A DNA stretch of 64,000 nucleotides from assembly GCA_902776455.1 (NCBI GenBank), contig CACYQI010000026.1, positions 5,686-69,685 of the forward strand. The letters run 5' to 3'. Under the pieces are notes generated by a model. That model was given only the letters and a program-made list of their open reading frames with translations. It was not told where the DNA came from and made no database searches. The position numbers were made by a program, and so were the translations under genes. Shown piece by piece: positions 8,637-58,392 of this stretch (its first letter is position 1; each line of letters opens with the position of its first letter). The DNA is from an uncultured Bacteroidales bacterium (GTDB lineage Bacteria; Bacteroidota; Bacteroidia; Bacteroidales; Bacteroidaceae).

Positions 8637-8755
8637 CAAACCATAAACCTTCAAAAAAGAAGTAGTCATCTTATCTATAGCTGTCCAGGGAAAATAAAAA
8701 ACTCTACGGAACCAAGGAGTCAAAGGAGAAACCACCTCAGCACATCGCCGCAGTT

Positions 8756-8840
8756 CCCCTCCCCTCTAAGGGGAGGGGTTAGGGGTGGGGTATGTAACAC
8801 AGAAACAGCCTCTCCCCCAGCCCTCTCCCGTGGGAGAGGG
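8756..8840. repeat. pair of GC-rich palindromes (8756-8778 cccctcccc-N5-ggggagggg; 8821-8840 ccctctcccgtgggagaggg)
   Basis: Both arm pairs were checked by reverse complement. They mark the start of the left repeat island. Confidence 0.9.
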
Positions 8841-8879
8841 GGAAGTCTCTCCTTTTAGGAGGAGATTTAGAGGAGGCTG

Positions 8880-9085
8880 TGGAGCGTGATCCGATGCTAC
8901 ATGGAGCGTAAGCCGATGCAACGTGGAGCGTGAGCCGATGCTACATGGAGCGTGAGCCGATACAACGTGGAGTGTGGGCCGATGCTACAAGGAGCGTGAG
9001 CCGATACAACGTGGAGTGTGGGCCGATGCTACAAGGAGCGTAAGCCGATGCAACGTGGAGCGTGAGCCGATGCTACATGGAGTGC
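8880..9085. repeat. tandem array of about 9 units of a 22-nt repeat (A family, tggagcgtgagccgatgcaacg/…gctaca)
   Basis: Head-to-tail 22-mers alternate between two variants. There are no unique spacers. Confidence 0.9.
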
Positions 9086-9180
9086 TTTAACGTATAAAGT
9101 TGACTGACTTAACGTATAAAGTTGACTGACTTAACGTGTAGAGTTGACTGACTTAACGTGTAGAGTTGACTGACTTAACG
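9086..9180. repeat. tandem array of about 4 units of a 22-nt repeat (C family, cttaacgtRtaRagttgactga)
   Basis: Four near-identical 22-mers directly abut the A array. Confidence 0.9.
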
Positions 9181-9318
9181 TGTGAGTCCGCTTGAAAAAG
9201 TCCTGTAAGGACTAAAAGCTCTTAGCCCAGGGCATCGCCCTGGGTAGTAATCAAGCGGTTGTGTTTCGCTCTGTAAGAGCAAAAGCAGACATCTGAACTT
9301 TTCAAGTGGACTCACGTG
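9178..9318. repeat. 141-nt multi-stem element (S element): outer stem gtgagtccgcttgaaaaag/cttttcaagtggactcac enclosing three inner hairpins
   Basis: Inner hairpins are agtcc-tgtaa-ggact, cccagggc-atc-gccctggg and gctctta...taagagc. A second copy lies at 57854-57993. Confidence 0.75.
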
Positions 9319-9366
9319 AAGTTGGATGATGCCGGAAGGAAACTGTGCCTTCTCCCAAAAAGAATC

Positions 9367-9479
9367 GCCACAATCTGCCACAATCTGCCACATTTTCCCC
9401 AATCTGCCACAAATCTGCAACACGCATATCCGTTTGTACTTCAGCGCGATATAGCCCCTCTGTGGCAGATTGGCAGATT
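9367..9479. repeat. decamer-word hairpin (D family, aatctgccac words vs gtggcagatt)
   Basis: Left arm gccacaatctgccacaatctgccac...aatctgccacaaatctgc, right arm ctgtggcagattggcagatt. Confidence 0.8.
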
Positions 9480-9531
9480 TTCTCAGAAAAAAACCTTGTG
9501 TACGCGCGTGCGCGTAACATTATTATATCTA

Positions 9532-10200
9532 CCTCCTTTGACTCCTTGGCTCCTTAGAGTTTTTTTTCTACGGAGCACATGGAGTACATGGAGAAGGCCC
9601 CGCTTCCCTCCTTTTACTCCTTGGCTCCTTAAAGTTTTTGATGCCTAAGGAGTATAGGAGTACAGGAGTTTTAGACGCTGGGAGGGGGCTTCACTTCTCC
9701 GGAGTTTTGGAGGCTGGGAGGGGGCTTCGCTTCTCCTTTGACTCCTTGACTCCTTAGAGTTGTTTTCTACGGAGCACATGGAGTACATGGAGAAGGCCCT
9801 GCTTCCCTCCTTTGCCTCCTTGGCTCCTTAAAGTTTTGATGTCTAAGGAGTATAGGAGTATAGGAGTTTTGGAGGCGGGAAGGGGGCTTCACTTCTCCTT
9901 TGACTCCTTGACTCCTTAGAGTTGTTTTCTACGGAGCACATGGAGTACATGGAAAAGGCCCTGCTTCCCTCCTTTGACTCCTTGGCTCCTTAAAGTTTTG
10001 ATGTCTAAGGAGTATAGGAGTATAGGAGTATAGGAGTTTTGGAGGCGGGGAGGGGGCTTCGCTTCTCCTTTGACTCCTTGACTCCGTAGAGTTTTTTAAT
10101 GTCTAAGGAGTATAGGAGTAAAGGAGTTTTGGAGGCTGGGAGGGGGCTTCACTTCTCCTTTGACTCCTTGACTCCTTAGATATGGAGCACATGGAGAAGC
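9532..10200. repeat. higher-order tandem repeats (about 160-200-bp units, 3-4 copies) built from octamer words (ctccttga, ggagtata, ggagcacatggagtacatgg, ggaggctgggagggggcttc)
   Basis: The anchor ctacggagcacatggagtacatgg recurs at 9568, 9767 and 9929. Confidence 0.85.
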
Positions 10201-10205
10201 ATCCG

Positions 10206-10318
10206 GTTCTGGCGGATTTGAAATCCGACAGAATTGAGAATAAGCATTTGCAATGCTATAAGCTGTGGGGATTACAAATCCCTAACTCAAAACGGCCGGA
10301 TTGCAAATCCGTCCGAAC
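10206..10318. mobile_element. MITE-like four-hairpin element (F family), copy 1
   Basis: Ends gttctggcggatttgaaatccg... and ...cggattgcaaatccgtccgaac are inverted repeats. Internal hairpins are cggatttgaaatccg, gcatttgcaatgc, ggattacaaatcc and cggattgcaaatccg. Confidence 0.7.
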
Positions 10319-10473
10319 AGCGAAGGGGCAGCGCCAAAGGAGCACTCACTCCCCCTAAATGGGGGCGGGGGTCTTGGAGGCTGGGAGGGGGCTTTTCCTC
10401 TCTGGTAGAGGCTGAGAGGGGGCTTCCAGATAAAAAAAATCACACAATTCTTTGAAGGTATTGAAATTCTTAG

Positions 10474-10481
10474 TAATTTTG
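10474..10481 (+). promoter_or_regulatory. -7 box TAATTTTG for the LRR gene
   Basis: The box ends 37 nt upstream of ATG 10518. The paralogue at 56741 has TACTTTTG at the same distance. Confidence 0.65.
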
Positions 10482-10885
10482 TGCTGGAAACAAGTAATTA
10501 CCAACAACACAAAAGATATGAAACGGGAACTTTTACTTCTTCTCGTGGCTCTGCTGCCAATGGTAGCAAGTTCCTACGATGTCCAGATTGATGGCATCTA
10601 TTATGACTTCTCGGGAGACAATGCAACGGTGACTTATCAGAAATATCAAAATGATTATTATGTATCTGATTATTCTGGTGAAGTAGTTATTCCAGAATCT
10701 GTTACTTACGGTGGAAAGACTTACAGCGTGACCAGCATCGGCTACAGGGCCTTCTATGGTTGCAGCGGACTGACCTCCGTCACCATCCCCAACAGCGTGA
10801 CCAGCATCGGCGAGGAGGCCTTCCGAGGTTGCACCAGCCTGACATCCGTCACCATCCCGAACAGCGTGACAAGCATCGGCAACTA

Positions 10886-10984
10886 TGCCTTTGATTGTTG
10901 CACCAGCCTGACTTCCATCACCATCGGGAACAGCGTGACCAGCATCGGCTACAGAGCCTTCTCTGGTTGCACCAGCCTGACCTC
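10886..10984. repeat. 99-nt perfect direct repeat, copy 1 (LRR module)
   Basis: Reads identically to 11231-11329 by eye, offset 345 nt (five 23-aa LRR units). Confidence 0.85.
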
Positions 10985-56741: not shown

Positions 56742-56778
56742 ATCTTTTGTTTTATAGTTAATTACTCGTTTTGCTGTA

Positions 56779-56786
56779 CAAAAGTA
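56779..56786 (-). promoter_or_regulatory. -7 box TACTTTTG for the LRR paralogue
   Basis: Plus strand reads caaaagta, 38 nt upstream of ATG 56741. Confidence 0.65.
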
Positions 56787-56887
56787 CAAAGAATTTCAAT
56801 ACCTTCAAAGTATTGTGTGATTTTTTTTGTCTGAAAACCCCTCACAGCCTCCCCAAAGTGTTTCCGTGTGGCATACCCCACCCCTAA

Positions 56888-56910
56888 CCCCTCCCCTGCG
56901 AGGGGAGGGG
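56888..56910. repeat. GC-rich palindrome cccctcccc-N5-ggggagggg (mirror of 8756-8778)
   Basis: The flank ccccacccctaac is the reverse complement of the flank at 8779-8791. Confidence 0.9.
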
Positions 56911-57108
56911 AAGAGAGGCTGAAACCATATCAGCGAGAGCTTTCTCCATGTACTCCATGTGCTCCGTAGAAATAAAAACTCTAAGGAGCCAAGGAGTCAA
57001 AGGAGGGAAGCGGGGCCTTCTCCATGTACTCCATATACTCCGTAGATAAAAAGGCCCCCAGCCTCCACATTGGGAGGAGGAACGCTCAGTTGCAGCTAAG
57101 AGGCTCTA

Positions 57109-57221
57109 GTTCGGACGGATTTGCAATCCGGCCGTTTTGAGTTTAGGGATTTGTAATCCCCCAGCTTATAGCATTACAAATGCTTTTTCTCAATTCTGTC
57201 GGATTTCAAATCCGCCAGAAC
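57109..57221. mobile_element. MITE-like four-hairpin element (F family), copy 2
   Basis: gttcggacggatttgcaatccggccg...cggatttcaaatccgccagaac. Confidence 0.7.
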
Positions 57222-57475
57222 TGGATGCTTCTCCATGTACTCCGTAGAAAAAAAACTCTAAGGAGTCAAGGAGTCAAAGGAGAAGTGAAGCCCCATTCCC
57301 GCCTCCAAAACTCCTTTACTCCTATACTCCTTAGACATTAATAAACTCTACGGAGCCAAGGAGTGAAAGGAAGGAAGCGGGGCCTTCTCCATGTACTCCA
57401 TATACTCCGTAGATAAAAAGGCCCCCAGCCTCCATCTTGGGAGGAGGAACGCTCAGTTGCAGCTTAGAGGCTCTT

Positions 57476-57589
57476 GTTCGGACGGATTTGCAATCCGGCC
57501 GTTTTGAGTTTAGGGATTTGTAATCCCCACAGCTTATAGCATTACAAATGCTTTTTCTCAATTCTGTCGGATTTCAAATCCGCCAGAAC
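57476..57589. mobile_element. MITE-like four-hairpin element (F family), copy 3
   Basis: Near-identical to copy 2, 367 nt downstream. Confidence 0.7.
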
Positions 57590-57704
57590 AGGATGCTTCT
57601 CCATGTACTCCGTAGAAATAAAAACTCTAAGGAGTCAAGGAGTCAAAGGAGATATGTAATAATGTATCGCGCGCATGTGCGTACACAAGGTTTTTTCCCG
57701 AGAA

Positions 57705-57812
57705 AATCTGCCAATCTGCCACAGAGGGGCTTTATCGCGCTGAAGCACAAACGGATATGCGTGTGGCAGATTTGTGGCAGATTGTTGAAAATGTGGCAGA
57801 TTGTGGCAGATT
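57705..57812. repeat. decamer-word hairpin (D family), mirror copy
   Basis: aatctgccaatctgccacag ... gtggcagatttgtggcagatt...gtggcagattgtggcagatt. Confidence 0.8.
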
Positions 57813-57853
57813 TGGGGGTGCAGGTACAGTTTCCTTCCGGCATCATCCAACTA

Positions 57854-57993
57854 CACGTGAGTCCACTTGAAAAGTTCAGATGTCTGCTTTTGCTCTTACA
57901 GAGCGATACATAACTGCTTGATTACTACCCAGGGCGCTGCCCTGGGCTAAGAGCTTTTAGTCCTTACAGGACTTTTTCGAGCAACTTCACACG
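57854..57993. repeat. multi-stem S element, mirror copy
   Basis: Reverse complement of 9178-9318 with substitutions. The cccagggc/gccctggg stem is kept while the loop changes (atc vs gct). Confidence 0.75.
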
Positions 57994-58032
57994 TTAAGTC
58001 AGGCAACTCTACACGTTAAGTCCCCCAACTTC
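57991..58032. repeat. C-family 22-nt units (2 copies), mirror
   Basis: acgttaagtcaggcaactctac acgttaagtcccccaacttc. Confidence 0.7.
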
Positions 58033-58042
58033 ACTCGCTAAA

Positions 58043-58167
58043 ACACTCCACGGAGTATCGGCTAACACTCCACGGAGTATCGGCTAACACTCCACGGAGT
58101 ATCGGCTTACGCTCCACGGAGTATCAGCTTACACTCCACGGAGTATCGGCCTACGCTCCACGTTGTG
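58043..58167. repeat. A-family 22-nt tandem array (about 5.5 units, acactccacggagtatcggcta), mirror
   Basis: Head-to-tail 22-mers in reverse orientation relative to 8880-9085. Confidence 0.9.
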
Positions 58168-58392
58168 TTCGGTACAGCCCCCAAGCCTCTCCTATATCCT
58201 CCCCTAAAGGGAACCGATAGGTCGATGGCCGTTCCGCCTGCACCTGAGGCAACAGCCGAAGAAGGGAAAGGCAGGGACTTCCGCCCCCCTCTATGTTCCC
58301 TGTTAGGGGGAGGAAAGCGGGCGAAGAAAGTCACTTGCGGCAGTTAGCATAGAAAAATGGAGTTAATCTTTTATTAATTGCCAACTTATTCG

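Follow-up and report, generated by a model that had tools for sequence, protein, structure and literature searches.

Two repeat-rich intergenic islands, L and R, lie in a 64,000-nucleotide stretch of DNA from an uncultured Bacteroidales bacterium (GenBank assembly GCA_902776455.1, contig CACYQI010000026.1, positions 5,686 to 69,685 of the forward strand; hereafter the window), each next to a gene encoding a BspA-type leucine-rich repeat (LRR) protein (LRR-L and LRR-R). We conclude that each island is probably (rough probability, 0.75) a mosaic resembling the bacterial interspersed mosaic elements (BIMEs), composed of REPINs (doublets of repetitive extragenic palindromes [REPs]), MITEs (miniature inverted-repeat transposable elements), and minisatellite repeats, rather than a dedicated control region or an inversion device. 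Both islands were found where an earlier note on this DNA had placed them (Table 1). Their anatomy, which comprises GC-rich palindromes, two 22-nt minisatellites (A and C), a three-hairpin insertion (S), a decamer block (D), arrays of 8- to 9-nt words (E), and a four-hairpin element (F), is real and striking; its best explanation is ordinary in kind. Labels such as L051 or L112 designate fetched genome or metagenome contig stretches, and island L and island R always designate the two spacers of the window.

Module F and REP-associated tyrosine transposases

Module F is self-complementary, since it aligns with its own reverse complement as GTTC-hp1-GAATATA-hp2-spacer-hp3-TATATTC-hp4-GAAC (hp, hairpin). 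In an alignment of 36 copies, 95.7% of the cells pair, nine pairs display compensatory changes, and none of 500 shuffles reached the observed value. The window contains four copies of F, spread over three spacers, and 12 GGATTnnnAATCC hairpins for an expected number of 0.04. A search of species-representative genomes with a 21-nt pattern derived from hairpin 1 recovered at least 100 loci, nearly all of them in metagenome-assembled genomes (MAGs) of rumen or gut Bacteroidales, including at least 27 in a single MAG.

One of the fetched stretches, L051, carries F halves on both sides of a 178-aa open reading frame (ORF) that scores 102 bits (cutoff of 80) against NCBIfam model NF047646, "REP-associated tyrosine transposase" (RAYT). 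Three additional homologues of this ORF (L126, L128, and L130), 67 to 74% identical and located in other contexts, are likewise flanked by F halves, so that the association holds for four loci out of four; it was seen in related genomes and not in the genome of the window. The motifs NHLH, WQ, and YIHHNP and the length of 178 aa fit TnpA_Y1 subclass 2.6, or RAYT group 5. Together, the self-complementarity of F, the location of its halves on both sides of a RAYT gene, and its dispersal indicate that F is a REPIN, that is, two REP doublets of the type flanking a Bacteroidota RAYT of subclass 2.6 (group 5). Two other stretches, L075 and L006, were considered as F-type elements with a long interior and were rejected, as they proved to be merely coincidental neighbors, L051 being the true RAYT carrier. 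In other MAGs, F REPINs are also found in tandem, with three to six copies grouped in a few kilobases (L128, positions 2155 to 2700; L073, positions 3750 to 7775), and one such cluster lies directly downstream of a RAYT gene.

Module S and Y1 transposases of subclass 1.2

The S unit consists, in order, of hp-a, an invariant hp-b (CCCAGGGC-N3-GCCCTGGG), hp-c, and the sequence AAAAGC. At all four loci examined (L100, L095, L132, and L134), inverted S units stand on both sides of a gene encoding a 151-aa Y1 transposase; the locus occupies positions 4335 to 4991 in L100 and 1745 to 2420 in L095. The S-flanked protein matches Pfam Y1_Tnp (E = 4.6e-19) and displays the subclass 1.2 motifs DHIH, WQ, and Y---Q--HH. 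The stems of the S units differ between genomes by compensatory changes. These data provide evidence that Y1 transposases of subclass 1.2 have cognate hairpins, the S units.

Alignments revealed that S fills the corresponding site in islands L and R, and that L112 and L125 offer clean empty sites. S is 96.8% identical between L and R versus 88.8% for the adjoining D block, so S is younger than the backbone. In the window, S is bounded by terminal inverted repeats of 17 to 18 nt, with a possible short ACGTG repeat at both junctions. An inverted doublet of a second, S'-like three-hairpin REP type was detected at 37846-38060 and has the appearance of a REPIN that lacks a gene of its own. The match of one of its arms to the Rfam family Acido-Lenti-1 attains the gathering score, suggesting that members of this family may themselves be REP-like DNA.

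Backbone common to islands L and R

Comparison of L with the reverse complement of R by blastn revealed a colinear match of 586 bp (9006-9584 versus 58166-57599; 84% identity, E = 0) that takes in the A and C 22-mers, S, and D. There are two additional matches, both at 77% identity: one starts ~110 bp ahead of the ATG and runs into the 5' part of the LRR genes (10408-11035 versus 56851-56239), and the other covers the last ~490 bp of these genes, encoding their C termini (13019-13507 versus 55382-54891). The colinearity of the backbone and promoter matches, for which the earlier note had proposed just such an alignment, indicates that the paralogy of the two loci is real. The backbone common to L and R thus comprises, in the same order, the A and C arrays, S, D, E words, and the conserved promoter block. 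The module order had been described as identical throughout; this stands for the backbone and does not extend to the number of E and F units or to the placement of the GC-rich palindromes. The E and F matches between the islands are many-to-many: L contains approximately 3.5 E units followed by a single F, whereas R contains two E-F-GC units of about 340 bp (57652-57311 and 57283-56944) that are 94% alike and 28 bp apart. One GC-rich palindrome (8754-8807) occupies a distal position in L, whereas its match in R (56912-56859) is gene proximal.

This species has at least four copies of the backbone, of which one lies downstream of the 791-aa gene, two lie upstream of LRR-L and LRR-R, respectively, and one is the hybrid found in the window. 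Its best-conserved part is the D block (88 to 92% pairwise identity across four copies), in which two inverted decamer copies lie about 40 nt downstream of the decamer array (9461-9480). Gene conversion between L and R, tested on the D block, left no signal, since the four copies are equidistant and their relationships are star-like. A repeat search revealed that the L composite is bracketed by inverted blocks of E words (8690-8730 and 9533-9565; 33 to 41 nt, 90 to 94% complementary, 804 nt between the arms). L125, a 96.6%-identical relative recovered as the one locus in a D-block pattern scan of metagenome contigs that is not a census of backbone copies, contains a short version of the island without S or F; its equivalent bracket (31 nt, 87%) encloses a much shorter interior, with 526 nt between the arms. 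Spacer-less tandem repeats of 22 to 23 nt within an element with inverted ends are thus found in the L backbone and in its L125 orthologue.

The modules are neither invariant in length nor restricted to the islands. The A array measures 206 nt in the window versus 162 nt in L102, a near-identical strain. In L101, L102, and L125, the backbone follows the 791-aa gene with no LRR gene nearby. Single modules also occur in unrelated spacers of the window, at 31.7, 37.8, and 46.4 kb, and another A-type array is present at ~46700-46760.

Junctions within the E arrays

The window has relatives at 99.5 to 100% identity among the contigs of several ENA rumen metagenome assemblies. These are short-read assemblies, in which misjoining at repeats is possible, and the alternative junctions described below rest on them. 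All seven contigs that reach position 9700 from the side of the 791-aa gene change there, to a 92%-identical or to a different sequence, and the junction present in the window near this position, together with a unique 36-bp duplication (9665-9736; Tandem Repeats Finder [TRF]), was seen in the window only, with no second witness. In L101 and L102, obtained from two samples with two assemblers, E words, a GC-rich palindrome, and a 92%-identical F copy are followed by an LPG-synthase operon absent from the window. The LPG-synthase gene of L101 did not lead to the partner island beyond the window, since the exact protein was not recovered and the neighbors vary in related species. In L105, the 791-aa side runs into an E array typical of the LRR-L island. 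L112 combines LRR-L and a 100%-identical proximal half of the island with a different distal half (A'-C'-D', 83 to 92% identity, no S), which adjoins a 1197-aa gene. Finally, L113 and, by its coordinates, scaffold_301 stop at ~9700-9720. In all, at least three types of junctions were observed inside E arrays among contigs that are 99.5 to 100% identical. Contigs from many independent assemblies (L101 to L113, L124, and L136) end in E arrays, at ~9700-9990 and ~57136-57416.

The breaks at 9700, the contig ends, and the duplication restricted to the window would all be accounted for if island L as a single unit were an assembly chimera of two half-islands joined in the E array. We regard this explanation as unlikely, since L105 does join the 791-aa side to an E array of the LRR-L type and island R is reproduced at 98.7 to 100% identity in independent assemblies. 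Even if island L were chimeric, LRR-L possesses in L112 an A'-C'-D'-E-F island of its own, with an unchanged order of modules. The E arrays are thus either real points of recombination among at least three islands or systematic assembly joins, and the islands behave as strain-level breakpoints of recombination and assembly. The function in recombination targeting that had been suggested for the islands is therefore retained to the extent that near-identical strains switch partners in E arrays, and it does not include an inversion between L and R.

We infer that genuine recombination between islands would take place in vivo through the E arrays. A wider and rather improbable version of this idea is that the E-word and REPIN islands form a recombination network that swaps upstream halves and neighboring genes among loci, including BspA-like ones, while the Y1 transposases of subclass 1.2 run a REP-like system of their own. 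If this were true, the pairing of LRR genes with islands would vary among closely related rumen strains, and repeats would offer Prevotellaceae-like bacteria a means of varying their surface proteins and of turning over pseudogenes.

LRR genes and their promoters

LRR-L and LRR-R encode closely similar signal peptides and closely similar C termini (last ~170 aa), as previously described. The left gene is frameshifted and the right gene is intact, again in agreement with that description: LRR-L has lost 7 bp in a single deletion near position 11328, by comparison with the intact 998-aa orthologue of L113, and LRR-R encodes 616 aa. Strains differ in LRR-R by one 69-bp repeat unit (55588-56550), the product having 639 aa in L136 and L139 versus 616 aa in the window. 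The third BspA-type LRR gene of the window (40635-43965, plus strand) is split into two ORFs around 42222, a position at which L136 and L137 contain ~82 extra bases and an intact 1138-aa gene. The frameshift in LRR-L and the split third gene therefore amount to two LRR pseudogenes in the genome of the window.

Both islands end in a conserved block containing a Bacteroidetes-type promoter motif, TTTG-N19-TAnnTTTG, located 37 to 38 nt before the ATG (10451-10481 and 56809-56779). This motif matches the reported consensus of the Bacteroides primary sigma factor. Since the predicted promoter lies within the last 110 bp, the islands are located upstream of the likely promoter, and gene-linked conservation is confined to these 110 bp. 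No inverted repeats bracketing the promoter were detected by the repeat search, and no site-specific recombinase was found nearby in the window; among the remaining large ORFs of the window, Pfam searches identified neither recombinase nor transposase genes.

The islands had been proposed to serve the LRR genes in regulation or insulation. Cis-regulatory DNA of BspA-like genes, whether activating, insulating, or subject to phase variation by repeat number, could explain why two backbone copies are found upstream of paralogous LRR genes (L112 and R) and why array copy number differs between strains, and the BrickBuilt element of Porphyromonas gingivalis has promoter activity (PMC4596501). We nevertheless consider a dedicated function of this kind quite unlikely, since the backbone is also found downstream of the 791-aa gene in the absence of an LRR gene, single modules occupy unrelated spacers, the core promoter and the gene-linked conservation lie within 110 bp of the ATG, and the content of the islands is grossly different between near-identical strains. 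The proposal had also called for a survey of other BspA-like loci for the same upstream modules; the third locus of the window has a short spacer and no island. The lack of a recombinase gene in the window and of inverted repeats around the promoter also speaks against such a function.

Orientation of the segment between the islands

The two loci had been interpreted as a long inverted repeat and a substrate for a large inversion, in which homologous recombination would flip the 41- to 46-kb segment located between them. The inverted paralogous blocks do exist, extending over ~1.7 kb plus the genes, and the E arrays behave as points of exchange between islands. However, the near-identical arms expected of a recombinogenic inverted repeat were not found: the identity between L and R ranges from 77 to 89% and the longest exact match is 53 bp, so that their divergence is too high for efficient homologous recombination.

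The contigs lead to the same conclusion. Those crossing island R (L110, L136, L137, and L139) reproduce the succession of RND (resistance-nodulation-division) gene, island R, LRR-R, efp, and onward at 98.7 to 100% identity, and those running inward from LRR-L (L112 and L113) also have the orientation of the window. By coordinates, two contigs from different samples, scaffold_301 (67,105 bp) and k141_637062 (67,259 bp), would extend from ~9.7 kb through R and ~13 kb past the right end of the window, and the stretches that were read (21 kb and 17 kb, respectively) are colinear with it. An inverted form of the 46-kb segment, a chimeric L/R island, or a chimeric LRR gene was not seen in the informative contigs from several rumen samples, which are short-read assemblies of limited power in this respect. 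Thus, the search for both orientations that had been recommended returned that of the window alone, and the D blocks of the four backbone copies are equidistant. In light of these data, inversion of the segment is very unlikely. GC skew, tried as a trace of past inversion, follows the coding strand and was uninformative.

Least probable of all is the view that S, D, and F are structured noncoding RNA genes or long 5' leaders, in spite of the compensatory changes in the hairpins and of the matches of parts of S-like units to Rfam Acido-Lenti-1, from weak to gathering level, since searches at gathering and E-value thresholds found no Rfam family at gathering score within the islands (the sole match being a weak one to Acido-Lenti-1 inside S), F, which is symmetric on the two strands, flanks genes for transposases, and the predicted promoter motif lies downstream of all modules.

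Features and other repeats of the window

The coordinates of the modules and of related features are listed in Table 1.

Table 1. Islands L and R, their modules, and related repeats (positions in the window)
Feature	Position	Strand	Description
Island L	8637-10517		Between co-directional 791-aa gene (Pfam BPSS1860) and plus-strand LRR gene LRR-L
Inverted E-word block	8690-8730	.	Left terminal inverted repeat of L composite; partner, 9533-9565
Three GC-rich palindromes	8740-8878	+	REP-like hairpins (sequence); related copies at 3729, 4175, 31654, 52394
A minisatellite	8879-9084	+	22-nt unit x 9.2, 44-nt higher-order unit (TRF)
C minisatellite	9085-9187	+	22-nt unit x 4.6 (TRF)
S miniature insertion	9184-9313	+	130 bp; terminal inverted repeats of 17-18 nt at 9184-9201 and 9297-9313; three-hairpin unit
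D block	9320-9530	+	AATCTGCCAC decamers x 5-6 (TRF), alternating GC palindrome
E arrays	9531-10190	+	8-9-nt words CTCCTTnGA / GGAGnAnAT; 162-bp and 90-bp higher-order units (TRF)
E-array breakpoint zone	~9700-9737		Contigs diverge or stop there
F four-hairpin REPIN, L copy	10206-10318	+	GTTC-hp1-GAATATA-hp2 ... hp3-TATATTC-hp4-GAAC
Gene-proximal GC-rich palindromes of L	10326-10425	+	100% identical in L112
Conserved promoter block of LRR-L	10426-10517	+	TTTG-N19-TAATTTTG at 10451-10481
LRR-L	10518-13507	+	BspA-type LRR pseudogene; Pfam LRR_5
A-type 22-mer array	31743-31826	-	Beside GC palindromes, between GH77 gene and yceG
S'-like inverted doublet	37846-38060	.	Second three-hairpin REP type; ~33 nt apart, hp-b CGGGGGC...GCCCCCG
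Independent F REPIN	46380-46500	+	Unrelated spacer, upstream of 794-aa gene at 43978-46362
LRR-R	54891-56741	-	Intact BspA-type LRR gene, 616 aa
Island R	56742-58448		Between minus-strand LRR gene LRR-R and divergent RND-adaptor gene
Conserved promoter block of LRR-R	56742-56851	-	TTTG-N19-TACTTTTG at 56809-56779
Gene-proximal GC-rich palindromes of R	56852-56943	-	Match L distal palindrome 8754-8807
Two E-F-GC higher-order units	56944-57652	-	~340 bp each
F REPIN copy R2	57109-57221	-	
F REPIN copy R1	57476-57589	-	
D block of R	57653-57852	-	Aligned block extends to ~57620 in first E words; 88.8% identity to L copy
S element of R	57859-57988	-	Core 96.8% identical to L copy; left terminal repeat degenerate
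C and A 22-mer arrays of R	57981-58166	-	C x 2.7, A x 5.5 (TRF)
Distal GC-rich palindromes of R	58167-58340	-	Sequence

The Bacteroidales markers of the window include Bacteroidales-1 (6S) RNA, BspA-type LRR genes, and RND efflux genes. The 6S-like RNA is a full-length Rfam match (130 bits) at 28717-28886 on the minus strand. The efp gene (54184-54702) encodes an EF-P of 172 aa in the window, whereas the product has 187 or 173 aa in contigs that are otherwise 100% identical. This indel (54166-54292), near the N-terminal loop region, could be a real polymorphism or an assembly problem.

Other repeats were noticed outside the islands. A tandem array of three 48-bp units, 97% identical and each containing the palindrome GTTGCGTTGCCAACGCAAC, lies just downstream of a TPR gene (38622-38766). 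A further 22-nt minisatellite (53407-53507; unit CGTGCCAAGTTTGCAAACTTAA x 4.6) bears no relation to A or C, so that a period of 22 nt is found in three different arrays. Arrays of 7- to 9-nt words occur at 2188-2277, 23201-23278, 24728-24810, 35716-35779, 52434-52515, 53984-54038, and 59576-59672. The words of the spacer arrays, often present as inverted pairs, are TTTCAAT, AACTTTTC, CCATTGA/AATGGTC, ATAATTC/AATTATG, CTCTGAATG/GAGTATTCT, and AAGGACTTT. Satellites of short words seem to be habitual throughout the genome in this lineage.

Proposed origin of the islands

According to the BIME-like interpretation, selfish and slippage-prone repeats would have piled up in intergenic spacers that tolerate them. 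The core would be a composite of ~0.6 to 0.9 kb made up of the GC-rich palindromes, two minisatellites of 22 nt (A and C), and the decamer hairpin of D; its L copy, bracketed by inverted E-word blocks of 31 to 41 nt, resembles a MITE with an internal minisatellite. S would have been added to the backbone as a 130-bp miniature element; it contains a single arm of the three-hairpin structure found beside the gene of a small subclass 1.2-like Y1 (HUH) transposase. F, by analogy, would have been mobilized in trans by a RAYT in the form of single-stranded DNA hairpins. The transposases acting on S and F would be encoded outside the window. Slippage or unequal exchange would have expanded the E-word arrays into units of higher order. 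The two islands would resemble each other because their backbones share a common descent and were invaded by the same families of parasites, the LRR genes being older paralogues with their own conserved promoter of ~110 bp.

Several observations weigh against this scheme. The terminal repeats of S and the possible duplication of ACGTG would be in keeping with a DDE-type MITE mechanism rather than with Y1 transposition. No Y1 transposase gene was detected in the 64-kb window (tblastn with a Y1 transposase query; Pfam on the remaining large ORFs), so that mobilization in trans is putative in this genome. F lacks the GTAG (or CGTC) 5' tag of classical REPs and ends in GTTC...GAAC, although tagless ends agree with what has been reported of subclass 2.6, whose REPs are "atypical." The left inverted E-word block is present neither in R nor in L112. 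More generally, both inverted ends were not found in most copies of the backbone, for which neither an empty site nor a target-site duplication was detected, and no mobilizing enzyme was found for modules A, C, D, and E. The alternative junctions may be misjoins at repeats. Finally, the location of two backbone copies upstream of paralogous LRR genes leaves room for some effect in cis on LRR expression.

The BIME-like interpretation replaces a speculative inversion switch by a concrete, testable picture. It implies that, in an uncultured lineage of rumen Bacteroidales, kilobase-scale mosaics are formed from repeats of the REPIN/RAYT and MITE/minisatellite types, of which the best-known examples come from Proteobacteria and P. 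gingivalis. At these mosaics, short-read assemblies are interrupted and gene neighborhoods diverge between near-identical strains, which bears on the quality of MAGs and on strain-level structural variation.

Comparison with known systems

The invertible promoters and shufflons of Bacteroides also associate surface-protein genes of Bacteroidales with repeat-rich upstream DNA. Unlike these systems, the loci of the window lack a nearby site-specific recombinase gene and inverted repeats on either side of the promoter, and a single orientation was observed.

The closest published analogues of the backbone are the BrickBuilt and PgRS MITEs of P. gingivalis, which are intergenic, reach ~1 kb, and contain an internal minisatellite of 22 to 23 nt (or 41 nt) (Klein et al. 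2015, PMC4596501). Common features are a spacer-less minisatellite, a nonrepetitive leader and tail, inverted ends, a variable copy number of the repeats, and the presence of multiple copies. There is no sequence similarity, and the IS5-like terminal inverted repeat of BrickBuilt (GAGACCTTTGCA) is not in the islands, and the occurrences of this pattern are at chance level. The inverted ends of the backbone are blocks of E words of 31 to 41 nt found in some copies only, no target-site duplication has been established for it, and other elements are nested inside.

Like the BIMEs of E. coli and the REPINs of Pseudomonas, the elements described here are short inverted palindromic doublets, intergenic, dispersed, and clustered in mosaics with other motifs, and, as in RAYT-REPIN systems, a single small gene for a HUH-Y1 transposase has identical units on either side. 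They differ in that F consists of four hairpins with a GGATT-N3-AATCC core and GTTC/GAAC ends, without a GTAG tag. In addition, the islands reach 1.7 to 1.9 kb, REPINs are mixed with minisatellites, and the host belongs to rumen Bacteroidales rather than to the Proteobacteria.

TnpA_Y1 subclass 2.6 (RAYT group 5 of Bertels) occurs mostly in Bacteroidetes and is "flanked by atypical secondary structures" (Quentin et al. 2018, PMC6006769). Its members have ~179 aa and the motifs NH[LIV]H, WQ, and YIH[QN]NP, which the protein of L051 and its homologues fit. The cited text provides no explicit cognate element; here, it is a four-hairpin REPIN of ~113 to 125 bp, widespread in MAGs of rumen Prevotellaceae-like bacteria. 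Subclass 1.2, by contrast, was described as generally having neither REPs nor secondary structures at its ends (Quentin et al. 2018, PMC6006769). The S-associated transposase resembles this subclass in its length of 151 aa, in its motifs, and in its occurrence in Bacteroidetes, and differs from it in that the gene is flanked by inverted S units at each of the four loci and in that solo S units are dispersed. Novel in comparison with these systems are thus the explicit sequence of the four-hairpin REPIN, which represents the REPs called "atypical" in Bacteroidota RAYTs; the evidence of hairpins cognate to Y1 transposases of subclass 1.2; and the kilobase scale and strain-level fluidity of the islands.

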